NCBI GenBank assembly: GCA_013150915.1
Contig: JAADJE010000084.1
Location: forward strand, 136-64,135
Source of the DNA: Gammaproteobacteria bacterium
Lineage (GTDB): Bacteria > Pseudomonadota > Gammaproteobacteria > BMS3Bbin11
Direction of reading: 5' to 3'
Length of the DNA: 64,000 nucleotides
The notes under the pieces were generated by a model, which was not told the origin of the DNA, ran no database searches, and worked only from the letters and a program-made list of their open reading frames with translations. A program made the position numbers and the translations under genes. Of this stretch, positions 24,732-43,805 are shown in pieces; within the stretch, counting starts at the first letter, position 1; each line of letters begins with the position of its first letter.

Positions 24732-26120
24732 ATGCAGACATCTACAATCTTTCTCGCACTGATCATCCTAACGGTGATCAGTTTTGCGCTGGGATACAAA
24801 CGTTCGCATGCTGTAGCAGCCGGGCACGGCGGCATCAAGTCGCTGCACTCTTTGCCCCGGCATTACGGCTATATGACAGCACTGTGGGCCGGCTTGCCGG
24901 CCTTACTCATTCTACTCCTGTGGATGGGGTTTGAACAAAGGGTACTCCACAGCCTTGTGTTGGCCAGCCTGCCGGAAAGTGTGCAAAGCATGCAGGAAAG
25001 CCAGCTCGGGCTCTACTACAATCAAATCGTCAGTTTTGCCACTGGCAATATAGACAGTTCACAACTCAATGCAGATCAAATTGGAGCCGCTTCCTATTTT
25101 AACTCATTGCTAGCTTCAGGCCGTATAATCAAGAGCGCCCTGGTCTTTGTCATAATCGTCTTTGGTGCAGGGTTGGCCATGCAGCGAATCAGGCCTTCAT
25201 TCCGTGCCCGCAATAATGTTGAGAATATTTTCAAGTGGGTACTCTTCGCCTGTTCATTTATTGCGGTACTGACGACAGCCGGTATCGTCCTGTCTGTGTT
25301 ATTTGAAGCCGTGCGTTTTTTTCAGGTTATTCCCCTTACAGACTTTCTGTTCGGGCTGGAATGGAGTCCACAGATGGCCATTCGTGCCGACCAGGTGGCA
25401 GCATCCGGTTCATTTGGCTTTGTGCCTTTGTTTGTCGGCACAATGCTGATTACCCTGGTTGCCATGTTGATTGCCGTACCTGTCGGCCTGATGTCCGCCA
25501 TCTATATGTCGGAATATGCCACTAAGCGTTTTCGCACTATAAGTAAACCGATGCTGGAAATACTGGCCGGGGTGCCCACAGTCGTTTATGGTTTCTTTGC
25601 CGCACTCACTGTGGCACCTTTTATCCGCAATTTGGGCGAGTCCTTTGGTCTCAACGTATCTTCCGAGAGTGCCCTGGCCGCCGGTCTGGTTATGGGAATC
25701 ATGATTATTCCTTTCGTCATGTCATTGTCAGATGATATTATCACTGCAGTACCCGATGCCATGCGTGAAGCCTCGCTGGGCCTGGGCGCAACGATGAATG
25801 AGACGATACGAAAGGTCGTGTTGCCTGCTGCCCTACCGGGCATCATTGGGGGTATATTACTCGCTGTGTCACGCGCCATTGGCGAGACCATGATTGTTGT
25901 CATGGCCGCCGGGCTATCGGCAAAACTGACCATCAATCCGCTGGAGGCGGTGACCACGGTCACAGTACAAATCGTTACCCTGCTAGTTGGTGACCAGGAA
26001 TTCGACAGTCCAAAAACACTGGCCGCCTTTGCCCTGGGTTTGTCGCTTTTCTTCGTGACGCTACTGCTCAACGTCATCGCCCTCTATGTGGTCAGAAAAT
26101 ACCGTGAGCAATATGAATAA
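24732..26120 (+). CDS. pstC: Phosphate ABC transporter permease
   Basis: Multi-TM, LAGVPTVVYG, EAA loop, SRAIGETM. Confidence 0.95.
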   Translation: MQTSTIFLALIILTVISFALGYKRSHAVAAGHGGIKSLHSLPRHYGYMTALWAGLPALLILLLWMGFEQRVLHSLVLASLPESVQSMQESQLGLYYNQIVSFATGNIDSSQLNADQIGAASYFNSLLASGRIIKSALVFVIIVFGAGLAMQRIRPSFRARNNVENIFKWVLFACSFIAVLTTAGIVLSVLFEAVRFFQVIPLTDFLFGLEWSPQMAIRADQVAASGSFGFVPLFVGTMLITLVAMLIAVPVGLMSAIYMSEYATKRFRTISKPMLEILAGVPTVVYGFFAALTVAPFIRNLGESFGLNVSSESALAAGLVMGIMIIPFVMSLSDDIITAVPDAMREASLGLGATMNETIRKVVLPAALPGIIGGILLAVSRAIGETMIVVMAAGLSAKLTINPLEAVTTVTVQIVTLLVGDQEFDSPKTLAAFALGLSLFFVTLLLNVIALYVVRKYREQYE

Positions 26121-27423
26121 ACAGATAGACAGCAATACAGATAGAAGCACAAACCGGAATACCGCCGTAATAGCGGCATCATTAAAGAAGCGCTATGCGC
26201 GAGAGAAACGCTTCCAGTGGTATGGCCGGCTGGCTGTGTTAACAGGCTTTATCTTTTTGTTTCTGTTGCTTGCAGATATCGTCAGCAAAGGGACGCCTGC
26301 CTTTACTCAAAGCTTTATCAAGCTCTCCATTAATCTAGATCCTGAGAAGCTCGGCGTAGACGCTAATTCAACGGAAAATGAATTACGGCAGGCGAATTAT
26401 GCCGCGGTGATTAAACGCAGCTTGCGTAAAAAATTTCCTGAAGTCTCCGGACGAAAAGAGAAGCGCCGGCTATACCGACTAATTAGTATCGGGGCCGAAT
26501 ATAAGCTGCGTGATTATATTGTCGCCCACCCTGAGGATATCGGGAAGCGTAAAGAATTCTGGCTGCGGGCACATTCCGAGGCAGACAGTTACCTGAAGGG
26601 GCAGGTGGATAAAAACACCCCGGAAGCTGACCGGCGTGTAAAAGACAATCAAGTAAACTGGCTAAATCAGCTACACAAAGAAGGCCTTACCGATACTCGC
26701 TTCAACACCACATTCTTTACTGCCGGCGATTCCCGTGAGCCTGAACTGGCGGGGATAAAAGCCGCCTTGTTTGGATCCTTCTTCACCCTGTCGGTTACCT
26801 TTCTGCTTTCTTTCCCGATCGGTGTCTTTGCCGCAATTTATTTACAGGAATTTGCACCACGCAACCGCCTCACCGATCTAATTGAAATAAATATCAATAA
26901 TCTGGCCGCCGTGCCTTCCATCGTTTTTGGTCTACTGGGGCTGGCTGTTTTCATCAATTTTTTTGGGCTGCCGCGCTCTGCGCCGCTGGTTGGTGGTATC
27001 GTGCTGGCGCTGATAACATTACCAACTATCATCATTACATCGCGCACCGCGATTCAGGCCGTTTCACCTTCCATCCGTGAGGCCGCCCTCGCCATAGGTG
27101 CGTCAAAGTTACAGACCATATTTCACCATGTCCTGCCAGTCGCCATGCCCGGTATTTTTACCGGGGCGATAATTGGTATGGCCCAGGCACTGGGTGAATC
27201 CGCGCCTTTGCTAATGATCGGCATGGTCGCCTTTATCATGGATGTACCTGGCAGCATAATGGACTCGTCGACAGTACTGCCAATACAGGTTTATTTGTGG
27301 GCCGACAACCCAGAACACGGGTTTATGGAAAAGACCTCGGCAGCCATTATGGTACTGCTACTCTTTTTGATCATAATGAATGCGCTTGCTATTTATCTGC
27401 GTAAACGCTTCGAATTAAAATAG
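26113..27423 (+). CDS. pstA: Phosphate ABC transporter permease
   Basis: [28 protein letters not shown]; start overlaps the pstC stop. Confidence 0.95.
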
Positions 27424-27434
27424 GGTCTGATAAG

Positions 27435-28379
27435 ATGCAGACGGTAACAATGATAAAGGACAATTCCGCAGTGACTGACAAGAACACAACTGACGAGGGT
27501 ACGCTTGCATATGTCACTGCAAACAAGCCTGTAAACGAAACGCTGCAGGGCCTGCGTGAATTTGATATCCACGAGTCGGGGGATAACGAAAAACATGAGA
27601 CAGTCGGTCAGCCTTTCATCGACAATGCCAGGATTTCTGCGCGTAATGTCAATGTCTACTATGGTGATAAACAGGCTATTATAGATGTATCACTGGACAT
27701 CGCTGGGAATCAGATTATTGCCATGATTGGCCCCTCAGGCTGTGGTAAATCCACCTTTTTACGGACCATCAACCGGATGAATGACATCATTCCCGGCTGC
27801 CGCTTTGAAGGTAATATCAAGCTTGACGGTGAGGATATTTATGATACAGAAATGGATATCGTACTGCTGCGTGCACGTGTCGGCATGGTATTCCAGAAAC
27901 CGAATCCGTTTCCAAAGTCAATCTTTGAAAATGTAGCATACGGGCCGCGCATCCATGGCCTGGCGCACAATAAGGCCGAACTGGATGACATCGTCGAAAA
28001 GAGTCTGCGTCGTGCCAGCCTGTTTGATGAAGTGAAAGATCAGCTGGATAAACCGGGCACCGGTCTGTCAGGCGGCCAGCAACAACGCCTGTGCATCGCA
28101 CGTGCCATAGCGGTCAGCCCCGAGGTTATACTGATGGACGAACCCTGCTCAGCACTGGATCCGATCGCCACCGCACGCATTGAAGAGCTGATGGATGAGT
28201 TAAAGGAGAAATACACCATAGTTATCGTCACCCATTCCATGCAGCAGGCCGCTCGCGTGTCGCAGCGTACGGCCTATTTCCATCTCGGAAAGCTGATGGA
28301 GGTCGGTAATACACGAGAGATATTCACCACGCCCAAGCACCAGATGACGGAAAATTATATTACCGGACGATTCGGTTAG
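27435..28379 (+). CDS. pstB: Phosphate ABC transporter ATPase
   Basis: [31 protein letters not shown]. Confidence 0.97.
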
Positions 28380-28394
28380 GCTAAGGAAAATACC

Positions 28395-29105
28395 ATGGAA
28401 AACCTGCAAATTGATCAACATATTTCAAGAAAATATAATGAAGAACTCGAAGAATTGCGCAGTAAAGTTATGACCATGGGCGGTATGGTTGAGAAACAGT
28501 GTAAGAATGCATTACAGGCCCTGATCAAGGGCGACAGCAGCCTGGCAGAAACAGTCGCCACATCGGACTATCTGATTAATGGCCTGGAAGTCGAAATCGA
28601 TGCGGAATGCACTAATATTCTTGCTCGTAGACAGCCTGCTGCCAGTGATTTACGTATGATTCTGACCGTTATCAAAACCATATCGGATCTTGAACGGATT
28701 GGTGATGAAGCAGAAAAGATTGGTCGTTTCGCTCTAAAACTGGCCAATAGTCAGGAGCCTCAATCCTATTATTCAGACTTACTGCACCTGGGTGAACATG
28801 TCATCGAGATGCTACACGGTGCGCTCGATGCCTTTGCCCGTATGGACGTGGAGGCTGCAGTCAGAGTGGCGGGGCGTGACCCCGAGATCGATCAGGAATT
28901 TGAGTCGCTTACCCGTATGCTCATTACCCACATGATGGAAGACTCTCGTGAGGTAAAAAATGTATTGCGCCTGAACTGGTGCGCACGCTCACTGGAGCGA
29001 ATCGGTGATCACTCTACCAATATCTGTGAATACGTGATCTATCTGGTGAAGGGGCATGATGTACGACATGTCAGTCTGGAGCAGATACAGCAACAGTATA
29101 GTTAG
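28395..29105 (+). CDS. phoU: Phosphate signalling protein PhoU
   Basis: ARRQPAASDLR, two DLERIGD/SLERIGD repeats. Confidence 0.96.
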   Translation: MENLQIDQHISRKYNEELEELRSKVMTMGGMVEKQCKNALQALIKGDSSLAETVATSDYLINGLEVEIDAECTNILARRQPAASDLRMILTVIKTISDLERIGDEAEKIGRFALKLANSQEPQSYYSDLLHLGEHVIEMLHGALDAFARMDVEAAVRVAGRDPEIDQEFESLTRMLITHMMEDSREVKNVLRLNWCARSLERIGDHSTNICEYVIYLVKGHDVRHVSLEQIQQQYS

Positions 29106-29270: not shown

Positions 29271-30254
29271 CTAGAGATAGCCTTCGCTCCGATACCATTC
29301 AGCCGTTTTGGCCAGACCTTCATCAAGACCCACTTTTGGCTCATATCCCAGCTCTTTTTTGGCCCGGGTTATGTCAAAGGCGCGGTTCTGCCGATACCAG
29401 TCGACTCGCCTGGGAAATATTGGCGGTGTAATTTTGAACGGTTTGCATACTTTTTCGAATATGTGCCCTGCAACAATAAGGGGCCATAGAGGGAAATACT
29501 GAATTTTTACATCCACACCCAGGGCATTGCCGACTCTTCTGACCAGATCATTAATGGAAACATATTCTTCATCACCAATGAGGAATGTCTGACCATCACC
29601 CTTGCCTGGCTCCATAGCCAGCATATGTGCATCCACAAGGTTTTCCACATAGAGAGGGTGATACAGGGTTTTACCGCTACCGAACATCGGAAATCGACCA
29701 TTGTTCACGCGTTTAAAAATCATATAAAAACGTTCCGGATCCCCAGGCCCATAGATGGCGGTGGGTCTTAATACGACTGTTTTGAGCCCCCTGTTTGCAA
29801 ACTCATACACCACCGGCTCAGCCGCATATTTGGTCTGTTGATAGTAGTCCGCTGCATTGATGGGCGCATCTTCATTTGCAGGTGGATTTTCAACATCACC
29901 GTGTACCCCACAGGTACTGCAGTAAATAAATTTACTCACCCCCTGTTTTTCGGCGGCCTCCAGAACATTTCGAGTTCCACCAACATTGATTTCATCATAA
30001 TAGCTATTAGGTACATTGAGCTCCCTGAATGCCGCTGCCAGATGCTGAACCACATCGACCCCCTGCATGCATTTTTCGACCACATCCTTATCCACCACAC
30101 TGCCAATAACCACATCGGCCCCCATATTGCGGAGCTCATCGGTCGCCAGTCCCTCCTTATAATCAAGTGCTACGACCTCATGGCCTTCATTAATCAGGCG
30201 CCTGACCAACGCTTTGCCCGTAAACCCCGTCCCACCAGTAACCAATATTTTCAT
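29271..30254 (-). CDS. NAD-dependent epimerase/dehydratase (extended SDR)
   Basis: GGTGFTG, YQQTK (YxxxK), LRPTAIYGPGD. Confidence 0.92.
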   Translation of the reverse strand: MKILVTGGTGFTGKALVRRLINEGHEVVALDYKEGLATDELRNMGADVVIGSVVDKDVVEKCMQGVDVVQHLAAAFRELNVPNSYYDEINVGGTRNVLEAAEKQGVSKFIYCSTCGVHGDVENPPANEDAPINAADYYQQTKYAAEPVVYEFANRGLKTVVLRPTAIYGPGDPERFYMIFKRVNNGRFPMFGSGKTLYHPLYVENLVDAHMLAMEPGKGDGQTFLIGDEEYVSINDLVRRVGNALGVDVKIQYFPLWPLIVAGHIFEKVCKPFKITPPIFPRRVDWYRQNRAFDITRAKKELGYEPKVGLDEGLAKTAEWYRSEGYL

Positions 30255-30535
30255 TTTATACCCTCTAAAAAAACAGTCTCGTCGTTGATTGTCTTTCCAA
30301 CGTCAAACAGGAATTATAGACACCCAGGTAACCTCCAATCAATTAGCATTTTTCAAAATTACCGTTTTGAGTTTTGCTAAAACACTTCTCCCTGTTTTGA
30401 ATGAATGATTTTCCAGCACTGCCTGTCATTATTTGGTGAATTATTCATCAAATCACCTGTTTTAGGTCACTGCTACCCCATAAAAAACGATATTATCTGC
30501 CCTGGTGTTTTGGTCTGCACAGGTAGAAGAGAAAG

Positions 30536-32482
30536 ATGAACGTAGTGATATTTTCTGGAGGACGTGGTTCAACAGTGCTATCGAAGCGACTGGTCAGGCA
30601 ACCGGGGCTTTCGCTAACGGTGTTGATCAATGGTTACGATGACGGCGCATCAACGGGTGAGGTCCGCCGTTTTCTGGGGGATTGCCTGGGGCCCTCGGAT
30701 TTCCGTAAGAATGCTTCCCGCTTCGCCAGCGAACTGAATACCTGCGAGTGCGCGCTGATAGACTTATTTGATCTGCGCCTCCCCATGGGGCTGTCTGATC
30801 AGGATGGTATAAGCACCGTCAAACTGCTGGTAGCGCAGCACATCGATAAATTGCCCCCTGCGGTTAATGCTGTCAGATCTGTGGCACAACGGTTGAGTGC
30901 GGAAACACTGGCAAGGGTTGCGGACAGGCTGGGACACTTTCTCTCAATAGTCAAATCAGGTGGCTTTGCATTTGCTGATTGTGCCATTGGCAACCTGGTA
31001 TTTGCAGGTTGTTATCTGTCAGAAGGGCGAAATTTTAACCGAGCAGTCAATAATTATTGTGGCCTCATGGGCCTGCCTGATGGATTGATCGTTAATGTTA
31101 CCAATGGTGAAAATCTCTTCCTGGTAGCACTGGACAGGAGCAACCATTTCCTTGCCAGTGAAGAAGCCATTGTTGATTCGGCCCGAAAAAATCATATTGA
31201 AGATATCTACCTGATTGCTCACCCCATCGGGGAATCAGAAAAGACCTTATTGGAAAAAATGGACAAAGTGGCCGTTATGGAATGGTTGCAGCAACGCTCC
31301 ATTGCCCCAGTAGCGAATCCGGCTGCGCTGGAGGTGCTGGAAAGGGCTGATCTGATTATTTATTCTCCCGGTACACAGCACTCAAGTCTTTACCCCTCCT
31401 ACATGACCCCTAAAATTGGTCTTGCAATCACGGCCAACTTCAAGGCGATCAAGCTATTGATCACCAACATCTACGAAGATGCAGAGATTACGAACTATCA
31501 GGCCGTTGATATCGCCGATCGTGCTCGGTTCTATCTGCGCGAAAAAGACAGGAGGGATTATCCAGATCCACTGCTGGTGACACATTCGCTGATCAATTAC
31601 CCGGACCAGGCCCGAAGCAGTACTGCTCATATTGCACCCGGTGACCTCGGCCTGATTGATGACCCACGTGCTATTCGTATTGGGGAATACGAAGATGCTT
31701 CTTCTGGATTTCATGATGCAGATAAAGCGCTGACGCCATTTATCAATACTATCTTCCGCCAGAGGCAGAGCCTGAAATTGGCGGTTTTGATGCAGGAAGC
31801 GATATCTGCCGATAAAATCACCCAGAGTGTGTTGCAAATGCTCCGTCATGGCACAGCGGAACAACTGCAGAAGATAGACCTCCTCAGCGAATTGGAATCG
31901 CCCTTGCCGAGCTCATTGCAAGAGCGCCTGCCTTTCCAGACTATTCATGTTCTGCCTGAGGATATCCAGCAATTCCTGTCAGAATCAGATTATGACTATG
32001 TCGTACTTTTTGAATCCTCCGGGATGTATCACGGCGGTGATATCATGAAGCTGATTAGTGTCCTTGAATCCAGTGACCTGGATGCAGTGTGGGGAAGTCG
32101 GAGGCTGTCAGTAAATGATATTCATGATTCCTACCGTCTACGTTTCCAGCATCGGCACATTATTGGTGCAATCAGTTATCTTGGCAGCCATTTACTCAGC
32201 CTGGTCTATCTGTTTTTATTCGGCCGCTACATCTCCGATTCGTTGTCGGGGGTACGCGTAATCCGTAAAAACCTGTTGGTAGAGATCCCCTTTAATCAGG
32301 AACCAACGATTTATAACCAGCAATTGCTCTCCGGTATCTTAAGAAAAAGAGGTGAAGTACTGGAAATGCCCGTACGTTTTTTTTCCCAGTCTCCGAAAAA
32401 GGTCAAGCGGACGACGATAATAGACGGACTGAAAGCTCTAGGGGTAATCCTGAAGAATCGCCTGTTTGGCCAACACGGATGA
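30536..32482 (+). CDS. YvcK/CofD (UPF0052)-like domain fused to a degenerate GT2 (DPM-synthase-like) domain
   Basis: FSGGRG, GYDDGASTG, PSDFRK, IGNL, ADLIIYSPGT..SSLYPS (YvcK-type motifs); C-terminal AVWGSR, ISDSLSG, EMPVRF (GT2-type) with FESSG in place of DxD. Confidence 0.8.
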   Translation: MNVVIFSGGRGSTVLSKRLVRQPGLSLTVLINGYDDGASTGEVRRFLGDCLGPSDFRKNASRFASELNTCECALIDLFDLRLPMGLSDQDGISTVKLLVAQHIDKLPPAVNAVRSVAQRLSAETLARVADRLGHFLSIVKSGGFAFADCAIGNLVFAGCYLSEGRNFNRAVNNYCGLMGLPDGLIVNVTNGENLFLVALDRSNHFLASEEAIVDSARKNHIEDIYLIAHPIGESEKTLLEKMDKVAVMEWLQQRSIAPVANPAALEVLERADLIIYSPGTQHSSLYPSYMTPKIGLAITANFKAIKLLITNIYEDAEITNYQAVDIADRARFYLREKDRRDYPDPLLVTHSLINYPDQARSSTAHIAPGDLGLIDDPRAIRIGEYEDASSGFHDADKALTPFINTIFRQRQSLKLAVLMQEAISADKITQSVLQMLRHGTAEQLQKIDLLSELESPLPSSLQERLPFQTIHVLPEDIQQFLSESDYDYVVLFESSGMYHGGDIMKLISVLESSDLDAVWGSRRLSVNDIHDSYRLRFQHRHIIGAISYLGSHLLSLVYLFLFGRYISDSLSGVRVIRKNLLVEIPFNQEPTIYNQQLLSGILRKRGEVLEMPVRFFSQSPKKVKRTTIIDGLKALGVILKNRLFGQHG

Positions 32483-33135
32483 TTTCACTTCAGCCCCCTA
32501 TTGAATACCTTATATTCGACCTGGACGGCGTGTTAATCGACTCATCCCCCTGCCATCGGGCGGCCTATCAGAAACTCTGGGATAAACTTGGAATCCACGG
32601 GCCAAAATATAGCAGTATTGCCGGTAAAAGGACGGCTGATGTTGTTTCAGCCATCACTCAGTCTCTGGCGCCCACAGAAACAGAAATCAACGAATGGGTG
32701 ATATTCAAGCAGAAAATGGCGCGACAGGAGATGGAACACGACCTTAAGGTTTGTTCGGGTGCAGTGGAGATCATTAATAGACTTCATGCTGAGGGTTGGC
32801 GCATGTCTGTCGCAACGGGGGCATCACGGACATCCGCACTTCTGGCGCTAGGAAGCCTGGGCCTTACGGCGTGTTTCGACTTTATTGTAACGGCCGATGA
32901 AGTGATCCAGGGCAAACCCGACCCTTTGGTGTTTAATGAAGTACTGAGAGGATCCAGGGTTCCTGCGGAAAAAGCCCTGGTCCTGGAAGACAGTCAATCG
33001 GGTGTAGACGCTGCTATAGCGGCGGGCATTCGGGTCTGTACGGTTCACACTGGCGTGCGTTCAGATGCTGACTTGTTCATGGGCGCCTACGCTAATTTGA
33101 ATGAAGGGTTGATCGAGCTGGGGGTATTTCAGTGA
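32479..33135 (+). CDS. HAD-superfamily phosphatase (beta-PGM-like)
   Basis: FDLDGVLID, ATG, GKPDP, LEDSQSG; ATGA overlap with the upstream gene. Confidence 0.92.
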   Translation: MISLQPPIEYLIFDLDGVLIDSSPCHRAAYQKLWDKLGIHGPKYSSIAGKRTADVVSAITQSLAPTETEINEWVIFKQKMARQEMEHDLKVCSGAVEIINRLHAEGWRMSVATGASRTSALLALGSLGLTACFDFIVTADEVIQGKPDPLVFNEVLRGSRVPAEKALVLEDSQSGVDAAIAAGIRVCTVHTGVRSDADLFMGAYANLNEGLIELGVFQ

Positions 33136-33875
33136 AGATACTGATCGTTCCAGCGGCAGGGCGTGGGTCGCGTCTGGGTTACGATAAGCCGAAGTTTCTC
33201 TATCCATTATGTGGCAAACCCTTGATTGATCATGTGCTGAATTTACACTGTCGTTTTGTTGATGAGGCCGTGGTTGTGGTGAGTGGTGATGCGTTTGAAC
33301 TGGCGCAGGAATATTTCAGAAACGCAGAATTGCCCATCAGGCTCGTCGTTCAGGATAAGCCTACCGGTATGCTGGATGCAATTCTTGAGGCCGGGAAAGC
33401 CGTGCGCAAAATCCATCCCGATAGAATATGGATTACATGGTGTGATCAAATCGCCATACAAACTGAGACCCTGGACCGTATGAAGGGGCTTGAGGAGAAA
33501 AGCGATCCGGCCATGATTGTTCCGATAATCCGGAAGACATCACCTTATATTCATTTTGATATGGATGATAAAGGACAGATATGTCGTGTCCTGCAACGTC
33601 GAGAAGGGGATGAGATGCCGGATGTCGGCAATAATGACATGGGACTATTTTCCCTGTCGCTCACCGCTTTTCAGCAGCTGGAAAATGATTTTTCATCCTC
33701 CCCGGAAATCGGTGGAGCAACCGGAGAGCGTAATTTTCTACCCTTTATTCCCTGGCTTGCCGGGCGGGAAAGGGTGATGCTAATGAGGGGAACGGACGAA
33801 ATGGAGACTGTCGGTGTCAACACTCCTGATGATGTATGCCGGCTAGCGCAACAGTTATGTGGTGAGAATTACTAA
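33132..33875 (+). CDS. Sugar-phosphate nucleotidyltransferase (GlmU N-domain-like, stand-alone)
   Basis: PAAGRGSRLG..PK, QDKPTG, WCDQ, GVNT; GTGA overlap with the upstream gene. Confidence 0.88.
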   Translation: MKILIVPAAGRGSRLGYDKPKFLYPLCGKPLIDHVLNLHCRFVDEAVVVVSGDAFELAQEYFRNAELPIRLVVQDKPTGMLDAILEAGKAVRKIHPDRIWITWCDQIAIQTETLDRMKGLEEKSDPAMIVPIIRKTSPYIHFDMDDKGQICRVLQRREGDEMPDVGNNDMGLFSLSLTAFQQLENDFSSSPEIGGATGERNFLPFIPWLAGRERVMLMRGTDEMETVGVNTPDDVCRLAQQLCGENY

Positions 33876-33909
33876 AAAATTAAAAAGAAACTTTTTGTAG
33901 CCCGGCGAC

Positions 33910-35949
33910 TCAACAACCCGTCTGGCCTTTACACGGGGTGCCAAATTCTAACTGACTCATTCTCCACAGTCTCCCTTTCCTCGGGACAACGATCTCTATT
34001 TTTATCGCATCAAGCTGGACAGGTTCAAACCAGAAAGTCTGGTGCATACCGCCGTAGACCGGGTGTTTTTTTCGGAACCGGACCCTGTCAAAATGCTGCA
34101 CCCTCTTGTCTACAATAACTGTCCAGGAGTCCCCTCTTCGACCGAGTATTCTGATTGACCTGGCGGTCTCGTCGGGAAGGTCTGGATAGATAAAGGGATA
34201 AACCAGTGTCACCCGCTGGACGGTACGCAGGGGTTTAAACTCTGCCTGTAACCACATGCCCGCCTTCTGCTCAGAGCCACTACTCCAGGAACTGCGCACA
34301 TTACCGTCACCGAGGTTTTCCAGGCCCGACCCCTGAGTGCTGCTGTTTAGCGAATAGGCCCGGCTGGAAATTCGGGTATCCACATCGCCCTGTTTATGGT
34401 GAAAATCCTCGTAGGTATAGAATGGCCCAACATTCCACCTCGAATAGGAGATATTCTGTTCTTTCATGTGCCGCTCAAATGCGGTAATGGGTAACCTTGT
34501 ATCGTAGCCGTGTGTGAGGACATAGCGGGCGTTTGGTGATTTATCGACAACATCCTTGTATGGAATCGGCCAGCCGAGAAAGCGCTCATTGTAGGGTGGT
34601 GCACATACAATTTTCTCATCCGTTCGAAAGATTATTCGATACCCCAGCCAGAACGAGGCATAACAACGGTCAATGCCTTTCTTCTTCAGCGCCTCGATTA
34701 AGGGAATGATTCCGGGTGTTTTTGCTATCTCCCCTGCAAACTGTGGTGTACGCCAGGAACGTATTACCTCTATAGAGCTTGCTATATTGAACAGCCCCAG
34801 GCCCACGGCGACCGTACCCACAACATAGCGTAATTTTCTCCCGGCAATTGAAAAGGCATAGCCAAACAAAAAGGGAAAGAAGATTACCGGAACCAGCAGA
34901 TACCTGTACGACTCCGGACCCGCACGCTCACTGAAGGCAAACAGGACAATGGCAATGAGACTGGAGCCCAGAAAGAAATCCTGGGTATCAAGATAAGGCC
35001 AACGACCCTGTTTAACATGGCGAACAAACCGGATCAGTCTATGAAAAAATACAACAAGGACCAGTAGCGAATAAGCGACGGCAAAAATATTCCTCAATAG
35101 GGGTAATTGCCCCAGGTGGGCGGTAAAATCGGGAAACAGCACCGGGTTGACGCCCATCGCGCCAGGCAGTACCTGACTGAGAGCTGGGTCCCACAGACGC
35201 TGGATCACTTCAAGGATTGGTCGGGTTTTTGAGACGGCTTCCTGTGCGTGGGGGTAGAGCACAATAGAAAGAATAAAGGGGACAAGTCCTATCAATGCCC
35301 CAAACAGAAAGCTGCCCGTACGCTTCGCAGCATCCACCAGACTTCGACCCAGCAGTATCAAAATAAAAGCGGGAAGTATGTAGGAAATTGCCAGCATGTG
35401 TACGCTAAAGGCCGTCCCGGCTACGATTCCGATAACCAGGAACAGACGGTAAGCTTGAGAGGAATTGAAAGACGCGGCCAACAGATAAGAGGTTACCCAG
35501 GCAAAGGTAATACTGGTCGCATAATTTGGTGGCACATATCCCGACTGGAGGATCAGGAAGTAGGCAGAGGGGAAAAGAACCAGGAGAAACGCCGGCCATT
35601 GGCTGTCTTTGGGCAGGACCTTTTTAACGAGGAAAAAAAATCCGCCCAGGGAGAGCAGGCCAAGGAACAAGGTTAGATAGCGGGCACCGACAACGTTTCT
35701 GGGCATCCACTCCACCAGGGGCGCCATTAAATAACCCTCTATCGGGAACAGATAGGGTGTTCCACTGATCAATAGCGGCCACTCGCCTCGGGCCACCTGC
35801 TTGGCGATCAAAACGGTCAGGGCCTCGTCTCCGGTAACAGGCAGGTGGGTGATGCTGGTCCAGATAAAGAATACGCGCAGGCCCAGTGCCATCAACAAAA
35901 CCGCGCCGAAGACGAGAATTACAGATCGCTTTTCAGATAAAAAACGCAT
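33910..35949 (-). CDS. GT-C (ArnT/PMT-like) membrane glycosyltransferase with C-terminal discoidin/F5-8-like domain
   Basis: First loop TGDEA, about 10-12 TM helices, YRYLL; C-terminal DG...SWSS..QKAGMWLQAEF and IKIEI..WRMSQL discoidin pattern. Confidence 0.75.
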   Translation of the reverse strand: MRFLSEKRSVILVFGAVLLMALGLRVFFIWTSITHLPVTGDEALTVLIAKQVARGEWPLLISGTPYLFPIEGYLMAPLVEWMPRNVVGARYLTLFLGLLSLGGFFFLVKKVLPKDSQWPAFLLVLFPSAYFLILQSGYVPPNYATSITFAWVTSYLLAASFNSSQAYRLFLVIGIVAGTAFSVHMLAISYILPAFILILLGRSLVDAAKRTGSFLFGALIGLVPFILSIVLYPHAQEAVSKTRPILEVIQRLWDPALSQVLPGAMGVNPVLFPDFTAHLGQLPLLRNIFAVAYSLLVLVVFFHRLIRFVRHVKQGRWPYLDTQDFFLGSSLIAIVLFAFSERAGPESYRYLLVPVIFFPFLFGYAFSIAGRKLRYVVGTVAVGLGLFNIASSIEVIRSWRTPQFAGEIAKTPGIIPLIEALKKKGIDRCYASFWLGYRIIFRTDEKIVCAPPYNERFLGWPIPYKDVVDKSPNARYVLTHGYDTRLPITAFERHMKEQNISYSRWNVGPFYTYEDFHHKQGDVDTRISSRAYSLNSSTQGSGLENLGDGNVRSSWSSGSEQKAGMWLQAEFKPLRTVQRVTLVYPFIYPDLPDETARSIRILGRRGDSWTVIVDKRVQHFDRVRFRKKHPVYGGMHQTFWFEPVQLDAIKIEIVVPRKGRLWRMSQLEFGTPCKGQTGC

Positions 35950-35969
35950 TAAATTGAGGGATCAACAGA

Positions 35970-36707
35970 TCAGGGAAGTCTACGGAATCTGAACCTGAGA
36001 AAGGTGATCAAGGCAATAAAAAAGTCCGTGGCCTTTATCTTTTTTCCATCTTCTACACTCCTGGGATAGTAGTGGATCGGCAGCTCTATGATTTTGATAT
36101 TGCTCCTGACCAGGAAGGTCGTCAATTCATGATCTGTCTCAAATCCGCTGGTTACGATCTTATATGAGCGAATCAACTTACCGGGATAAAGTTTATAGGC
36201 CGTTAAGGTATCGGTAATCCACTTACCCAGTAGCATAAAGGCAAAGACCGTAAGCACGCGGTTGGCAAACCAGTTGACGAACTTCTGATCCCTGTGCTTG
36301 CTCTTGATGAGCTTTCCCTCCGGAGAGAACACACACTGGCCTAGCAGGCGGCTACCATAAATGGACGTGTGCTCAGGGTCATGGCTCGCCGCCTCAATCA
36401 TAGGAATGTAGTCGTTTGGCTCATACTCAAGATCCGCGTCCTGCACCAGCACCCAGTCGCCTGTAGAAACCGATATCCCCCGCTTGACCGCTGAACCCTT
36501 TCCACGGTTTTCCGGCTGCAGGTAATAGGACACATTCTTGTGTTGTTTGACTATCTCACCGGTTCGATCGCTGGAACAGTCGTCAACGACAATCACTTCC
36601 TTATTCACTCCGACAGATTCCAGATCCACCCGGCCAATCTTCTCCAACAGCGTTCCAATAGAGGCTTCTTCATTATAGGCAGGAATGACTATAGAAAGTA
36701 TTCTCAT
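35970..36707 (-). CDS. GT2 polyprenol-phosphate glycosyltransferase (DPM1-like)
   Basis: IVIPAYNEE, VDDCSSD, NRGKG, QDADLEY, YGSR, GKKI. Confidence 0.92.
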   Translation of the reverse strand: MRILSIVIPAYNEEASIGTLLEKIGRVDLESVGVNKEVIVVDDCSSDRTGEIVKQHKNVSYYLQPENRGKGSAVKRGISVSTGDWVLVQDADLEYEPNDYIPMIEAASHDPEHTSIYGSRLLGQCVFSPEGKLIKSKHRDQKFVNWFANRVLTVFAFMLLGKWITDTLTAYKLYPGKLIRSYKIVTSGFETDHELTTFLVRSNIKIIELPIHYYPRSVEDGKKIKATDFFIALITFLRFRFRRLP

Positions 36708-36864
36708 GGTGTCTTTCTGCTCAGTGATAAGAAAATCCGTCTGACACAACCCCTGCACGTGCTACCAGGTAGGTAGACAGCATTCTCCGTAGCCACGAAA
36801 AAGTGGAATTATGGAATGCTTCAACACATCATTTCATAGGGCATTAAAATGCATTACAAACACA

Positions 36865-39060
36865 CTAGAACCTGAGTCCAACTGTCGTAAACACGGACAG
36901 TCCTTTCCCAATATAACTGGTATTTTCCGGGGTATCGCGATAGGTCAACGTCGTGCCGACCTGGGTACGACGGTTCAGATTCATCCTATAAAAGGCTTCA
37001 AAATCGATTTCCCTGCCCTCTGGGGCAAGCGAAACACGTGTTCGGCTATTAATAACATTGCGCTGACTGTCGAGTGACTGTGGCACAAGGAGATCAGCAC
37101 TGCCGTTGCTAATACGCAGAGGGCTGGACACAGCGAATCCTGCACGGTCATTATAACGGAACAGGCTCTTGCCGATTATCCCGGTTCCCCATGAATAGCT
37201 TCTTAACGTTGTAAAACTCTGCAGGAATGAGCCTCGCTGCTGCTTTACGCCGGTAAATCCTTCGGTAAAGCTACCAAACAGGGAAAATTTATCAAATATT
37301 CGGTACTGCCCGGTCAGGCCAATTGCAGTGGTGTTGGCATTCGCGACACTGAAGGCGCCACTCGACGCGCCACCAAGCAGGTTCCCGTCTTCAAAAAGGT
37401 TGTTTACACGTAATGAAACACTCATTTTTTCAGTTGGGGAATAACTGCCCTGCAGCATCACCGCCTCACTGCTTAGTCTGTTTTGCTTATTATTATTTAG
37501 ACGATTGGCGCCAAACTGGAACGAAAGTTTTTTACTGGCCTTATAGCCCATGCTGACATTATCGGAACGATTGCCGAAACCCATATACTGTAAGCCATAT
37601 GAGCTGGCCCAGATAAAGTTCTCACTTAATGATAAATTCCCGACCTTATCGAACCCGCTTGAAGGCGTATAGTTATGCTGAAGATTGAATGAAAAACCAC
37701 TGTTAAAACTTCCCGCCACTTTCATTGAAAGATCGCGGTCCCTTACCTCATCGTAGTTCTCAAGGAAAGGATCTGAATCCTTCAAAAAAACATAATCTGC
37801 CGGGTTAGTCGCCCGTGTGTGTAGAGACATTGAAAGATTATCAGACATGATGACATCTACAGTACGTGTCTGACGATCAAACATATTCATAACATTGAAC
37901 AATGTTGGTGCGCTGTTTTGTACATTTAAGGTCTGGTTCAAATTCATGATATACGGACGGTTGTACTTATCAAAAACCAGTGTCTTTTCAAGGTCTTTTT
38001 CTGCTTTTTTATTCTCGCTCCAGAAATATGCCAGCCCACCACCAACAGCCAGGGCGGCTATTCCTACGCCCAGTCCGCCGCTGGAGCCACTTGAGGATGC
38101 TCCAACACCGCCCTGTGCTGCAAGTGCCGCACCGACGTTCAACATGCCGTGCCCGTAGATCGCATCAACACCCGGCGCGCCAAGATCCGTAGCACTGTTA
38201 AACAGAATTTCCACCACCTGCTGGCTAGTAAGCTCAGGGTTTTGTGCCAGTATCAATGCTGCCGCACCGGCCACATGTGGTGTTGCAACGGATGTGCCTG
38301 TCCAGGTTACATAGCTCGTATTGCCACGATTACCCGGCGCATAAATACTCAGGCCCGGCGCCACCATATAGACAGCTGCAGCACCGCCCGCACGATTTGA
38401 CATATCAAGAAGGGTGTTATTTTGTCCTGTTCCGCCCACAATGATGCCACCCCCATTAAACTGGCCATAGACTGAGGGAGGAATATCCGGGTTTGCCTGA
38501 CTGTCATTTCCAGCTCTAATTATCACGAGCTTCCCGGCTTTTGTGGCATTTATGATTGCGCTATTCTGAGGCTCGGAAAAAATGGTGCCTGCGGTAAATG
38601 TGATTACACGCACATCACTGCGGGCAGCGGCCCGGTTAAATCCTGCTGCCGCGGCATCTGAACCGGCAAAGCGGTTTGAATCTGTGACACGTATCGGCAG
38701 GATTGATGCATCATAAGCGACACCGATAATACCCTGGCCATTAAAATTCGAGGCGATAATTCCCGCGACAGATGTGCCATGGCCACCACCCGTATCCACA
38801 TCACCGACATCACCCCCTGCAGCTATTCTCCCAAGCAACTCAACGTGAGTAACATTCACCCCAGAGTCCAGCGTAGCAATGGTAATCCCACTGCCTGTTG
38901 TATTGCTCCAGGCGGGAAACACGTTAACGAAACGGAGACCGTATTGCTTGAGGAATTCCTCCGAAGCGGGATCAGGTAATGCCTGTGCCAGTGCGCGACC
39001 GGATAAAGTAAGCAAACAGGCCATAAAAATTACCCTGGAGGGAGCAGATTTAAACGTCAT
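36865..39060 (-). CDS. Subtilisin-like S8 serine protease with C-terminal beta-barrel-like region
   Basis: Signal peptide; triad LDSG / HGTSVAG / GTSVATPHVAG; AGN oxyanion; amphipathic beta C-terminus ending in Phe. Confidence 0.88.
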   Translation of the reverse strand: MTFKSAPSRVIFMACLLTLSGRALAQALPDPASEEFLKQYGLRFVNVFPAWSNTTGSGITIATLDSGVNVTHVELLGRIAAGGDVGDVDTGGGHGTSVAGIIASNFNGQGIIGVAYDASILPIRVTDSNRFAGSDAAAAGFNRAAARSDVRVITFTAGTIFSEPQNSAIINATKAGKLVIIRAGNDSQANPDIPPSVYGQFNGGGIIVGGTGQNNTLLDMSNRAGGAAAVYMVAPGLSIYAPGNRGNTSYVTWTGTSVATPHVAGAAALILAQNPELTSQQVVEILFNSATDLGAPGVDAIYGHGMLNVGAALAAQGGVGASSSGSSGGLGVGIAALAVGGGLAYFWSENKKAEKDLEKTLVFDKYNRPYIMNLNQTLNVQNSAPTLFNVMNMFDRQTRTVDVIMSDNLSMSLHTRATNPADYVFLKDSDPFLENYDEVRDRDLSMKVAGSFNSGFSFNLQHNYTPSSGFDKVGNLSLSENFIWASSYGLQYMGFGNRSDNVSMGYKASKKLSFQFGANRLNNNKQNRLSSEAVMLQGSYSPTEKMSVSLRVNNLFEDGNLLGGASSGAFSVANANTTAIGLTGQYRIFDKFSLFGSFTEGFTGVKQQRGSFLQSFTTLRSYSWGTGIIGKSLFRYNDRAGFAVSSPLRISNGSADLLVPQSLDSQRNVINSRTRVSLAPEGREIDFEAFYRMNLNRRTQVGTTLTYRDTPENTSYIGKGLSVFTTVGLRF

Positions 39061-39291
39061 AGAACACACCATAATTTAGGTTTTGGACTGATATTTTTTA
39101 TTATGCGAACGTAAAAAAGTGGCTCATTATAAGCACTTTACCCCTTAAACTCCATTACTAATCCAAACCTTGTTTTGTCGATATACAGCTAACCGGGTCC
39201 CGTACACGCTGTTTATACCCACGACTCTAAACTGCCGTATTTTTTATCACGACAGACGTTTGTATGGAGACATAAGCCAGCTGGCCCCAAC

Positions 39292-40935
39292 CTATCCATG
39301 ACGGTACGCTCTGGTACTTTCCACACGGCTGATTTCCTTGCTCACACGCGTCTTGCTCCAGCCAAGTTCAGCGGCCATGATGTTCGCGCATCGTTTGAGG
39401 GTCTCACGGACGGGAATACCGGTACTTCCCAGGCCCGTTCGTCTGTAGACCACATCTGGCAACGTGACCGCCATCTCTTCGCGAACCGCGTAGATGACCT
39501 CCGCAATAATCGTGTCGCGGTCAGTTCCGACGAGGTCTCGTAATCCACTCACATTTTTAGCACTTTCCAGCACATCACGGCCATGACAGCCATATCGATG
39601 GTACAGCCTCGAGTCGTAGACCCGCTCAGTCCCAATGCCTTCTTTCTCTGCACCGTACAAAACAGGCTCAACATCCGGTCTCGCTGCGCGGACATCCAGC
39701 CTGGCCAATACCCTGTCGATCACACCAATAACCACCTGCGGGGCAACCGTATACTTGATGCCCGTTACTGTAAACAGGCCCCGTGTGCCGGCGCTTGTTT
39801 CATGGTCGACAACTCTGGTGTGTTTGAGCAGGCGAGAGGCGGCATCGGTCGCTGGATCTGCACTGTTTGCCGGCAACAGGCCGACGTGGCAAAAGCCGAT
39901 ATCCTTCCTGCTTATGCCTGCACAGGGATACAGCATATTTATCTCATCAATGACAGCTTCCAGCTCCGGACGGCTAAGGTTTGTTGAATCATCACCTGGA
40001 CTAGCCGTCACATACTCTGTGCCTATCAGAGTCCCTCCCTTCCAGGGTACGAAAAAATAGAACCGCTTACCCCGGTTGATGACGGCATCCCTGTCAATGT
40101 GCCGGGTCGCACTGCTCAGCCCCACCGCCATATCGTCGAAGAGCGGGCGTTTGAGAAATACATTAAATGCCTTGACCCATGCCTGAGGCATATCACCGGG
40201 CTGCCGGCTTAAATCCGCATCCAGCGCAGCCGCCCCGGGGCCGGCTGCATTAATAACCATGCGAGACCGTACATTAATGGCTTTACCGTCCAGCTTGTCT
40301 CGGGCATGAACACCGGTTACTCGATTGCCATCCAGGGTGTAAGCTTCGGCTGTAACATAATTGGCCGCGACGGCTCCCTGCTGTACAGCAGTATGAATAA
40401 TGGCGAGCATCAACCGCTCTGTGTCCTCGATAAATCCATCCTGCCACTGGGCTGCGCCGGTTAACCCGTCCTGATCGATGCAGGGCGATATGGCCAGACA
40501 TTGTCGCCGCGAAATAATCCTGCCCGCAGGTATTCGCTTGCCAGTATCGACACCCCTGTTACGGTCTACGCTGATTAAGTCATTCAGCAGTAGTGCAGCA
40601 CGCATGATCCATTTACCTTGCATACCATAGCCATAAGTCGGCACTAGAAATCGTTGTGGTCGCACTAAATAGGGGGCAATGGTAAGCAATTGCCGTCGGG
40701 CACGGATCGACTCCCGCATTCGCACAAGGTTCAGGTGTTGCAAATAGCGGAGGCCGCCGTGAACAATTTTCTGACTGTTTGCAGACGTTGCGGACCCAAA
40801 ATCACCCTGCTCAATCAAGGCTACACTCAGTCCACGCATGGCGGCCTCACGCGCGAGAAATGCACCGTATATGCCGCTGCCGACAATCAGTACATCAAAG
40901 GTATTCTCAGCAAGCAGCCGGAGGTCACGCTTCAT
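39292..40935 (-). CDS. FAD-dependent glycerol-3-phosphate dehydrogenase/oxidase-like protein
   Basis: GSGIYG, TSANSQKIVHGGLRYL, NAAGP, GIKYT, C-terminal EMAVTLPDVVYRRT. Confidence 0.88.
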   Translation of the reverse strand: MKRDLRLLAENTFDVLIVGSGIYGAFLAREAAMRGLSVALIEQGDFGSATSANSQKIVHGGLRYLQHLNLVRMRESIRARRQLLTIAPYLVRPQRFLVPTYGYGMQGKWIMRAALLLNDLISVDRNRGVDTGKRIPAGRIISRRQCLAISPCIDQDGLTGAAQWQDGFIEDTERLMLAIIHTAVQQGAVAANYVTAEAYTLDGNRVTGVHARDKLDGKAINVRSRMVINAAGPGAAALDADLSRQPGDMPQAWVKAFNVFLKRPLFDDMAVGLSSATRHIDRDAVINRGKRFYFFVPWKGGTLIGTEYVTASPGDDSTNLSRPELEAVIDEINMLYPCAGISRKDIGFCHVGLLPANSADPATDAASRLLKHTRVVDHETSAGTRGLFTVTGIKYTVAPQVVIGVIDRVLARLDVRAARPDVEPVLYGAEKEGIGTERVYDSRLYHRYGCHGRDVLESAKNVSGLRDLVGTDRDTIIAEVIYAVREEMAVTLPDVVYRRTGLGSTGIPVRETLKRCANIMAAELGWSKTRVSKEISRVESTRAYRHG

Positions 40936-42088
40936 GCTTATCGGCTTCCAGTTGCCGGTAGACGCTCAGTAATTTATTCTTGAAGACGCCGTAGGTGTGA
41001 CGGCCTTCGGCAAGTTCCCGAGCGGCATGTCCCAGTGTTTCGCGCAGGCTGGCATCCTTACACAATATAGCCAGTCCAGCTGCAAAGGCTGCCGGTTCAC
41101 CTGCTACCAGCACTGCGGAGTTTTCGTCCAGAACCTGCGTATGTGAGGGTATATCTGTTGTAATAATAGCCTTGCCTGCTCCCATATAGGAGTAGATCTT
41201 CATTGGGGTATTGACACCCTTGATACGCGGCGAAATGAGGATGTCCGCTTGCTCAAGGTATAACATCAGATCGGCAACGGGTCTCGAACCGAGGAAAATG
41301 CACAGTGCCGACACCCCTGCCGTTTCCGCCATGTCTTTATATCGTTCAATGTCCTCATCATTGCCACCGATAAACACGACGCGCAGTGCATCACAATCGT
41401 CGAGTTCAGCCAACGAATGGATAAGCAGATCGATACCCTGATAATGTTCAAGGTTACCGACATACATCGCCACAACAGTATTGTCGGGGACCCGTTTGTG
41501 AATATCGTCAATCGGTTCACCGCTTGGCTGAAGATCCATTGCGACATCTTCCAGAACACACAGGGGTAGTTCGGGGGCATAATCCTGTACGCGGACGGCC
41601 AGTGCATCACAGACAGGCAACACGACATCTGAGCGTCTTATCGCCAGGCGTTCAAAACCGTACATCACTGGGGCCACAACACGCAGGAAAGACCACTTTT
41701 CGAGGAGCTGGTCAGGCATGGACGAATCCATATCATAGACGATTACCCGTTTACCCCTGGGAATAAACAATGTGAAAAATATACTTTCCTCGCCGGCGTG
41801 CAACACATCATACGACCCTTTCCTGAGCATGTTGAGTGTCTTGAAGAACAACAGTACATCGTATAGCAGCTTGCCGAAAGAGAACCCTATTGGTATCTTT
41901 TTGACGAAAGGCAGGGATCGGGTACGAAAAATTCGCAGCCCTTCAATTGCGACATCATCACCAGGATGAAAGGTCAGCATGTCAACCGAATGGCCAGCGC
42001 CACACAGAGCCCTGACCAACATACGGGTAGCAATGGGCGTACCACGCTCCTGATAAAAGGGTTGTGGTACGAGCAGTAAGATCTTCAT
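40925..42088 (-). CDS. GT4 glycosyltransferase
   Basis: YVGNLEHYQG, NTPMKIYSYMGAGKAI. Confidence 0.9.
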   Translation of the reverse strand: MKILLLVPQPFYQERGTPIATRMLVRALCGAGHSVDMLTFHPGDDVAIEGLRIFRTRSLPFVKKIPIGFSFGKLLYDVLLFFKTLNMLRKGSYDVLHAGEESIFFTLFIPRGKRVIVYDMDSSMPDQLLEKWSFLRVVAPVMYGFERLAIRRSDVVLPVCDALAVRVQDYAPELPLCVLEDVAMDLQPSGEPIDDIHKRVPDNTVVAMYVGNLEHYQGIDLLIHSLAELDDCDALRVVFIGGNDEDIERYKDMAETAGVSALCIFLGSRPVADLMLYLEQADILISPRIKGVNTPMKIYSYMGAGKAIITTDIPSHTQVLDENSAVLVAGEPAAFAAGLAILCKDASLRETLGHAARELAEGRHTYGVFKNKLLSVYRQLEADKHEA

Positions 42089-42098
42089 CGTTGTGGTT

Positions 42099-42821: not shown

Positions 42822-42888
42822 TCTTGATCATGTCCTTAAATTCCACAGATCTTTACACAATACATTATTGTACTACGACAGAAGCGGC

Positions 42889-43707: not shown

Positions 43708-43805
43708 AGCTTTTATTAACCCTGCTGGGATACGCCGCCCAAGTGCCTATCACAGCACCTTTAAACACCGCTTACGATCAACCCCAACGGCGCACACTTG
43801 ATCCT

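Follow-up and report, generated by a model that had tools for sequence, protein, structure and literature searches.

The stretch of DNA analyzed here, referred to as the window, comprises 64,000 nucleotides of contig JAADJE010000084.1 (assembly GCA_013150915.1) from a gammaproteobacterium of the BMS3Bbin11 lineage, and our subject is a gene cassette at positions 30536-36707, which is built around a protein joining a YvcK/CofD-like domain to a glycosyltransferase-like domain. The gene for this fusion protein (30536-32482, plus strand, 648 amino acids) is followed on the same strand by genes for a HAD-IA hydrolase of the beta-phosphoglucomutase/YqaB-like type (32479-33135, 218 amino acids) and for a sugar-1-phosphate nucleotidyltransferase resembling the N-terminal domain of GlmU (33132-33875, 247 amino acids). 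The stop codon of the fusion gene overlaps the HAD start codon in an ATGA at 32479-32482, and the HAD stop codon overlaps the nucleotidyltransferase start codon in a GTGA at 33132-33135, both read directly in the sequence. These three genes converge on two genes of the minus strand, encoding a membrane glycosyltransferase of the GT-C fold (33910-35949, 679 amino acids, about 11-13 transmembrane helices and a periplasmic domain) and an intact, soluble glycosyltransferase of family 2 (GT2) of the DPM1/ArnC type (35970-36707, about 245 amino acids). The original prediction, made from the sequence alone, had described three translationally coupled genes converging on a GT2 and a GT-C protein, and the overlaps and open reading frames are as it described them. 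The GT2 reading frame remains open upstream to a GTG at 36758, but since the alignment of its family begins at the ATG at 36707, the latter is the likely true start. The genes of the locus are genuine, with many homologues for each. A scan for promoters and terminators between 28.9 and 39.4 kb returned signals at or below shuffle expectation, and the 12 sequencing runs listed, mostly hydrothermal-vent and marine-sediment metagenomes, are all of DNA or unknown type, with no RNA run among them.

The N-terminal domain of the fusion protein (residues 1-354; 30536-31597, plus strand) has a YvcK/UPF0052 fold. The Pfam profile CofD (PF01933) matches residues 3-354 with an E-value of 1.4e-18 (67.6 bits; cut-off 30), and the fusion protein is the sole PF01933 protein of the genome. 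In an AlphaFold2 model built on 20 homologues (predicted local distance difference test, pLDDT, 73.6), the N-terminal half matched the YvcK/UPF0052 structures 2ppv, 2hzb and 2o2z with Foldseek E-values of about 1e-9, and CofD of M. mazei (3c3e) more weakly (3e-4). Similarly, the profile of the fusion family matched five YvcK-type sequences in the PDB (E 6e-13 to 1e-6) and no CofD structure at E <= 1. Both by sequence and by fold the domain is closer to YvcK/GlmR than to CofD, so that of the CofD/YvcK fold originally proposed the YvcK part is the better supported. All curated family cut-offs are missed, which places the domain in a sister clade of YvcK/GlmR, outside the family proper: against the curated YvcK/GlmR family (TIGR01826) the fusion protein scores 51.9 bits, below the cut-off of 196, and against the top NCBIfam match of the domain, the GAK-system CofD-like family (TIGR04357; E 6.4e-17), it does not reach membership (62 bits; cut-off 340). 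A role in coenzyme F420 synthesis was considered and rejected, as CofD was missing from the profile matches and the F420 ligase (PF01996) had no match in this 97.7%-complete genome, with positive controls in three archaea (CofC, CofG and CofH were not searched); the lack of this ligase speaks against F420 chemistry.

Four motifs of the N-terminal domain (GGRGS, NGYDDG-STG, GPSD-RKN and PGTQHSSL-PSY) are invariant in the family alignment across proteins of 46-50% identity, and profile alignments show GGxG, DDG-S-(S/T)G, PxDxRN and PG(S/T)xxxSxxP to be common to the domain and YvcK; for example, NGYDDGASTG aligns with VADDGGSSG of YvcK-type proteins. The Asp pair D35-D36, invariant in the fusion family, corresponds to D40 and D41 of L. 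monocytogenes GlmR, which are proposed to be catalytic in the excerpts of Pensinger et al. considered here (PMC10128056). The Asn of the YvcK 'LPN' motif is aligned with Ser288 of the fusion protein, a position that appears to be equivalent to GlmR N198. The C-terminal third of YvcK, which includes the B. subtilis residues Y265 and R301 for UDP-N-acetylglucosamine (UDP-GlcNAc), gave no alignment to the family profile. Between the two halves of the fusion protein, residues 338-395 are modeled with a pLDDT below 50; the same segment is strongly conserved (DPR, YEE and G-x-HDA-K motifs), also in stand-alone forms of 419 amino acids, and it may become ordered only upon binding of a ligand or partner.

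The partner GT2 encoded at the far end of the cassette matches the Pfam GT2 profile (PF00535, E 1.9e-29, 103 bits). Its solved relatives, 26 in number and aligned mostly over residues 19-127, are headed by DPMS (7.8e-13) and ArnC (1.2e-12 to 3.9e-11), with GpgS trailing at 1.6e-5. Its donor motifs are intact: PAYNE, VVDDCS and QDADLEY do not vary among 21 sequences of the family, and YGSR is conserved. It misses the curated cut-offs for AglJ (76.5 versus 325 bits), ArnC (50.3 versus 529) and dolichyl phosphate hexose transferase (50.6 versus 375).

The C-terminal domain of the fusion protein (residues ~410-648; 31763-32479, plus strand) is related to this very enzyme. PF00535 finds no match in it at E <= 0.01, but its half of the AlphaFold2 model matches ArnC (3e-7), DPMS (1e-5) and GpgS (1.4e-5) in Foldseek, and an alignment of residues 400-648 from 61 sequences matches the partner GT2 family with an hhalign probability of 98.8 (E 1.1e-16). 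In this alignment QDADLEY of the partner is placed against LFESSGMY, with DAD replaced by E-S-S (493-495), and the NE and DD of the PAYNE and VVDD motifs are without counterpart, being unalignable in 45 of 46 representatives. The domain keeps the GSR and D-T motifs, several invariant Arg residues, a hydrophobic helix at 541-562 and a basic C-terminal motif. Judged by these alignments, it is a degenerate paralogue of the neighboring GT2 whose donor-side motifs have been lost, and this loss sets it apart from an ordinary GT2. The fused GT2 of the original prediction thus holds for the GT-A fold and its kinship to ArnC, DPMS and GpgS, but not for a complete donor site. A complex prediction for the full fusion protein with its partner GT2 scored 0.00 in two runs made with no controls, a result that counts neither for nor against their association.

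The two remaining genes of the plus strand encode enzymes of recognizable type. The nucleotidyltransferase matches NTP_transf_3 (E 1.7e-17) and, over residues 5-240, the NCBIfam model of GlmU (7e-17, below the curated cut-off). In an alignment with H. influenzae GlmU (2v0h) it keeps K25, Q76 and D105, which are needed in GlmU as quoted in the excerpts of PMC10128056. The HAD protein matches Pfam HAD_2 (E 1.9e-29) and the NCBIfam family PGMB-YQAB-SF (2.4e-31, below its cut-off).

For the membrane protein the structural model is more informative than the profiles. The Pfam family PMT_2 stays below threshold (18.1 versus 26.1 bits), as does an F5/8-type-C match in Pfam and NCBIfam. Among its 44 homologues at E <= 1e-5, 26 were aligned, and of these five carry PMT_2 at E <= 0.01 (best E 2.3e-9) and 18 carry F5_F8_type_C. 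The AlphaFold2 model (pLDDT 89.8) matched AftD (5e-8), ArnT (3e-6; TM-score 0.57 by target), AglB, EmbC and STT3 in Foldseek, and its C-terminal part matched the CBM32 structure 2v72 with a TM-score of 0.82; an Atlas feature search agrees. GT-C enzymes have a conserved acidic pair just after the first transmembrane helix, in the first extracytoplasmic loop. D41-E42 is invariant in the 26 sequences and in the model falls between the helices 4-35 and 40-53. As modeled, the protein is a GT-C enzyme with a C-terminal carbohydrate-binding module of the CBM32/F5-8 type C family (residues ~530-672; 33934-34362, minus strand).

The cassette is widespread. Of 8000 proteins scored, 2011 are homologues of the fusion protein at E <= 1e-3, and the top 120 are all 645-716 amino acids long with a query coverage of at least 97%. 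In a set with one genome per species, relatives are encoded at 430 of 467 pattern matches. Synteny was assessed at the best 80 loci, which belong to Acidobacteriota, Gemmatimonadota, several Proteobacteria, Nitrospirales and others and all lie in metagenome-assembled genomes, using tblastn with the window proteins (E <= 1e-5, at least 50% coverage). The nucleotidyltransferase was found at 74 and the GT2 at 75 of these loci, the HAD protein at 28 (absent from 52), and the usual order is fusion-(HAD)-nucleotidyltransferase-GT2 on one strand.

Open reading frames within 9 kb of the fusion gene were also clustered across the 80 loci. The clusters include a family of about 690 amino acids with 12 transmembrane segments (A2), present at 29 loci and, as is the membrane protein in the window, located directly after the GT2 gene in convergent orientation. 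Pfam matches of this family are weak (DUF6798 in 6 of 22, best 2.7e-3; DUF2298 and Dpy19 in one each), but the Atlas structure predicted for one member resembles a cluster of DUF2298 (TM-scores 0.80/0.77), which we take to belong to the GT-C clan, and this argues for a kinship of A2 to GT-C proteins. The GT-C protein of the window itself is not similar to A2 (BLASTP against two members, E > 3; hhalign of the A2 family against P0121, probability 0.2). Other polytopic neighbors are GT87-like (18 loci), PMT_2-like (9 and 13 loci) or belong to DUF2298 (7 loci), so that some GT-C-like polytopic protein occurs at 54 of 80 loci, and at 39 of the 49 loci whose flanks both extend over 5 kb or more. A rough count based on hydropathy finds a reading frame of at least 380 amino acids with at least seven transmembrane segments within 6 kb at 61 of 80 loci, and the density of large polytopic reading frames is 1.87 and 1.40 per 10 kb up to 3 kb from the fusion gene versus 0.44-1.11 at 3-9 kb, a control that relies on Kyte-Doolittle counts at the same loci. 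An MprF-type flippase-like membrane domain (17 loci), DedA/VTT proteins (13) and Wzx-like flippases (8) are further recurrent neighbors. A radical SAM/SPASM protein of about 386 amino acids was seen within about 5 kb of the cassette at 16 of the 80 loci (L006, L074 and 14 others), mostly in Acidobacteriota.

The closest association between these functions is seen where they are encoded by a single gene. Residues 1-395 of the fusion protein were searched against 1.84 billion representatives (clusters at 50% identity), which returned 1382 matches at E <= 1e-3, 817 at E <= 1e-10 and 305 at E <= 1e-30, and the best 150 were classified with profiles from alignments built in this analysis. The YvcK-like domain is combined with the degenerate GT-A domain in 46 of these 150 and with a GT2 of the partner type in 45; nucleotidyltransferase, YvcK-like domain and GT2 are joined in six (one of them weak), HAD and YvcK-like domain in three, and nucleotidyltransferase and YvcK-like domain in three (one partial). 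A single protein (P0226, 1148 amino acids) unites HAD, nucleotidyltransferase, YvcK-like domain and GT2. The other 46 matched none of the four profiles and include 24 stand-alone forms of 380-440 amino acids and 18 shorter fragments. Pfam confirms the multi-domain proteins; in P0226 it finds HAD_2 (5e-39), NTP_transf_3 (2e-16), CofD (1e-34) and GT2 (3e-33), and the GT2 part reads QDADLEYDP. Where a partner-type GT2 domain is part of a fusion, its DXD column reads P-x-D in 44 of 52 cases and D-x-D in six of 52. Judged from sequence data, no other evidence speaks as strongly as these fusions for four activities that serve as steps in a single pathway. By their source names, the forms with the most domains fused come from lineages with reduced genomes; P0226 derives from a metagenome-assembled genome of Nanoarchaeota, and P0204 (nucleotidyltransferase-YvcK-GT2) from one of Candidatus Moraniibacteriota.

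Within its own genus the cassette is a variable trait. Among 41 related genomes the fusion gene was found in two, that of the window and one of the 10 others of the genus. The latter (G003) is colinear with the window from pstA to the gene o452 at 81-96% identity. Two further genomes of the genus, G010 and G001, lack the complete segment SDR-fusion-HAD-nucleotidyltransferase-GT-C-GT2-S8 between phoU and a GlpD-like gene; their GlpD-like, GT4 and o272 proteins are only 33-50% identical to those of the window, with 40-50% for the GlpD-like and GT4 proteins, and phoU and o452 are 87-90% identical. Because the segment is missing there, its neighbors are divergent and the flanks are conserved, the cassette is part of a replaceable island some 15 kb long (29271-44348). 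A metagenomic locus, L096, encodes GT2, GT-C, fusion protein, HAD and nucleotidyltransferase on one strand with gaps of 15-110 bp. Its GT2 and GT-C proteins are 88% and 81% identical to those of the window, its fusion, HAD and nucleotidyltransferase proteins 45%, 37% and 41%. From these identities, L096 looks like a module swap, in which the same GT2/GT-C pair has acquired another allele of the trio and both parts have been kept together.

Several other genes share the island or its borders. A short-chain dehydrogenase/reductase (SDR) of the HpnA/3beta-HSD-like epimerase/dehydratase family (29271-30254, minus strand; assigned by Pfam and NCBIfam) is divergent from the fusion gene and part of the same genus-level indel. 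It was found at 10 of the 80 loci, only three times at 39-40% identity, and might possibly be an accessory modifier of the sugar nucleotide. A secreted S8 subtilase of 735 amino acids (36865-39072, minus strand; Peptidase_S8 E 3.3e-37) is encoded downstream of the GT2 and also lies within this indel, being absent together with the cassette from G010 and G001. Its N-terminus is signal-like, and some 400 residues at its C-terminal end have no Pfam match. It was not found at any of the 80 distant loci and has a homologue of 36% identity adjoining the cassette in L096 (13891-16008); it may be a substrate or partner of the cassette. Beyond the subtilase lies a second set of genes (39292-43707), which encodes a GlpD-like FAD oxidoreductase (39292-40935), a GT4 glycosyltransferase (40925-42148), a methyltransferase (42099-42821) and a 272-amino-acid protein. 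Methyltransferase, GT4, 272-amino-acid protein and SDR recur beside distant homologues of the GT-C protein at loci with no YvcK-like cassette (L104, L112, L114, L117, L119, L124). Directly upstream of the island is a pst phosphate-transport operon (24732-29105) with an unannotated 462-amino-acid reading frame in the position of pstC (24732-26120), a pstA containing DUF3333, pstB and phoU; we saw no link between this operon and the cassette.

Taken together, the gene set is real, widely conserved and unstudied, and it probably makes an activated sugar and loads a membrane lipid carrier, with the GT-C enzyme decorating the envelope. The reading we favor, and hold to be on balance the probable one, is that both ends of an envelope glycosylation pathway using polyprenyl phosphate sugars are encoded here, the loading end in the cytoplasm and the transfer end in the periplasm. 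In such a pathway the GlmU-like enzyme would convert a sugar-1-phosphate to the nucleoside diphosphate (NDP) sugar, and the HAD protein, where present, would prepare or trim the sugar phosphate. The YvcK/GlmR-like domain might then bind and handle this sugar nucleotide, while the degenerate GT-A half, which retains its interface helix and basic motifs, could hold the fusion protein at the membrane beside its intact paralogue. The intact GT2 would move the sugar onto polyprenyl phosphate, and after flipping, the GT-C enzyme would pass it to an acceptor recognized by CBM32; it is this carbohydrate-binding module that argues for a glycan as the acceptor. We infer every chemical step of this pathway, its lipid carrier, its sugar and its acceptor from the folds, motifs, synteny, domain fusions and island structure described above, and we are least certain of the reaction of the YvcK-like domain.

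A number of observations weigh against this reading. The GT-C family of the window was found at none of the 80 cassette loci, so that the gene set is conserved, as the original prediction required, with regard to the nucleotidyltransferase, the GT2, in part the HAD protein and the natural fusions of the same four domains, but not with regard to this membrane protein. A metagenome scan from the GT-C side yielded 42 loci, and cassette genes were present only at the two nearest (97% and 81% identity). The distant GT-C homologues (at most 49% identity) occur without the cassette and near an SDR (5 of 42), the methyltransferase o240 (6 of 42) or the GT4 protein o407 (2 of 42). Given that its family is absent from the cassette loci and has neighbors of its own elsewhere, the GT-C protein may be part of a second module within this island, and the second gene set described above may be a separate glycolipid or glycan module and the true partner of this GT-C family. 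In addition, hydropathy analysis revealed no transmembrane segment or anchor in either the partner GT2 or the fusion protein, and no flippase gene is visible in the island of the window: between 29 and 39 kb no unassigned reading frame of at least 80 amino acids is left for a GtrA- or ArnE/F-type flippase (smaller frames and the rest of the genome were not searched). The control used for the density of polytopic neighbors is crude, all curated equivalog cut-offs are missed (AglJ, ArnC, DPM-type, GlmU, YvcK), and Foldseek also matches the soluble enzymes GpgS and MpgS, which work with phosphatases.

The last of these points leads to an explanation in which the membrane plays no part. By analogy to GpgS and MpgS, the soluble GT2 might use the NDP-sugar to glycosylate a phosphorylated small acceptor and the HAD protein dephosphorylate the product to a compatible solute or cofactor-like glycoside, the GT-C gene being unrelated. 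The lack of transmembrane helices in GT2 and fusion protein, the NCBIfam match to GpgS (1.1e-13) besides those in Foldseek, the HAD phosphatase in the operon and the different neighbors of the GT-C family elsewhere would all fit. However, by sequence GpgS comes far behind DPMS and ArnC, the HAD protein is missing from 52 of 80 loci, GT-C-like, DedA and flippase-like neighbors are enriched, and the fusion protein has a hydrophobic helix of the interface type, and we thus consider this explanation improbable. Somewhat less remote, but still unlikely, is a regulatory role, in which the YvcK-like domain would be a non-catalytic sensor of UDP-sugars or a scaffold comparable to B. subtilis GlmR, gating or localizing the GT2 and the nucleotidyltransferase in response to sugar-nucleotide levels, with the dead GT-A domain docking to its active paralogue. 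Pseudoenzymes typically pair with an active copy, and the C-terminal domain is indeed paralogous to the partner GT2 and has lost its donor motifs. Moreover, in the excerpts considered here B. subtilis YvcK binds UDP-glucose and UDP-GlcNAc (PMC5482804) and the partners of GlmR vary with UDP-GlcNAc (PMC7525490). Nevertheless, the Asp pair put forward as catalytic in GlmR (D40 and D41; excerpts of PMC10128056) is invariant as D35-D36, the UDP-GlcNAc-binding residues Y265 and R301 cannot be mapped onto the domain, and its fusion to a partner-type GT2 in 45 of 150 proteins, and also to the nucleotidyltransferase in seven, looks like an arrangement of consecutive enzymes.

The remaining alternative follows the logic of CofC and CofD and lies closest to what was originally proposed. 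Here the nucleotidyltransferase would convert a phosphorylated compound to an NDP-linked one, and the CofD-like domain would transfer the phosphorylated moiety, with release of nucleoside monophosphate (NMP), to an acceptor at the membrane, which would be polyprenyl phosphate or a lipid-linked sugar, with the degenerate GT-A half holding it; the GT-C enzyme would deliver the phosphodiester or diphosphate product and the HAD protein remove leftover phosphate. Motifs that are invariant at 46-50% identity suggest catalysis rather than mere binding, the domain belongs to the PF01933 superfamily with CofD (3c3e) among its Foldseek matches, a MobA/CofC-like NTP_transf_3 domain is its conserved partner, encoded beside it or fused to it, and the degenerate GT-A domain has kept invariant Arg residues and the interface helix where the donor site is lost. 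On the other hand, sequence and fold are nearer to YvcK/GlmR, the nucleotidyltransferase can be aligned from end to end with the uridylyltransferase domain of GlmU with the UTP residues kept and matches no CofC model, the HAD protein is often absent, and an intact GT2, superfluous to this scheme, is present at 75 of 80 loci. We therefore regard it as possible but doubtful. A related and equally tentative idea, to which we assign a low probability, is that the YvcK/CofD-like domain represents a novel class of phosphotransferase for lipid-linked intermediates, which would take an NDP-compound from the adjacent, at times fused, nucleotidyltransferase and, as CofD does, transfer its phospho-moiety to polyprenyl phosphate or a polyprenyl phosphate sugar with release of NMP, the lipid acceptor sitting in the surviving acceptor site of the degenerate GT-A half. 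If true, this would add a third type of phosphoglycosyl or phospho-substituent transferase, a soluble one, and would give the whole YvcK/GlmR superfamily a catalytic precedent.

Irrespective of the exact chemistry, the locus bears on a disputed protein family. In the excerpts considered here, YvcK/GlmR is variously a regulator of GlmS, a binder of UDP-sugars or an accessory uridyltransferase (PMC6171935, PMC7525490, PMC10128056). In the cassette, a sister clade of this family is hard-wired into one pathway by synteny across several phyla and by fusions to a nucleotidyltransferase, a HAD protein and a GT2 of the lipid-carrier type. The question thereby comes down to a defined set of three or four proteins and to what becomes of a sugar nucleotide after it has been made and before it is transferred to lipid. 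The family, a large one, is concentrated in abundant soil phyla, Acidobacteriota and Gemmatimonadota, whose envelope glycans are almost unknown. Full-text literature searches, which did not extend to supplements, found no paper on this architecture, in agreement with the initial claim that no such system had been described. New here are the GT-A paralogy, the various fusions including that of all four domains, the indel within the genus, the swap of modules at L096, the GT-C and CBM32 folds and the separate neighborhood of the GT-C family.

Apart from the GAK-system protein, three known systems are suitable for comparison. With YvcK/GlmR/CuvA (UPF0052, TIGR01826; 2hzb, 2o2z, 2ppv, 2q7x) the fusion protein shares the fold, the motifs and the Asp pair, but it has an added GT-A domain and about 100 extra residues inserted in the N-terminal domain, and it is encoded in a glycan cassette rather than in a yvcJ-glmR-yvcL operon (operon as named in the excerpt of PMC10986989). 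The likeness to CofC and CofD of F420 synthesis consists in the PF01933 superfamily and in the pairing with a MobA-like nucleotidyltransferase, which in contrast is GlmU-like here. With the two-step systems ArnC/ArnT, GtrB/GtrC and Ppm1/PimE the cassette has in common that a GT2 gene is located directly upstream of a gene for an ArnT/AftD-like GT-C protein, and elsewhere GT87 (PimE-family) or PMT_2-like proteins adjoin the cassette. It differs from them in that its GT2 is short and has no transmembrane anchor, and in that a YvcK-like protein fused to a pseudo-GT-A domain and a dedicated nucleotidyltransferase are obligatory, neither of which, according to our literature search, has been described for such systems.

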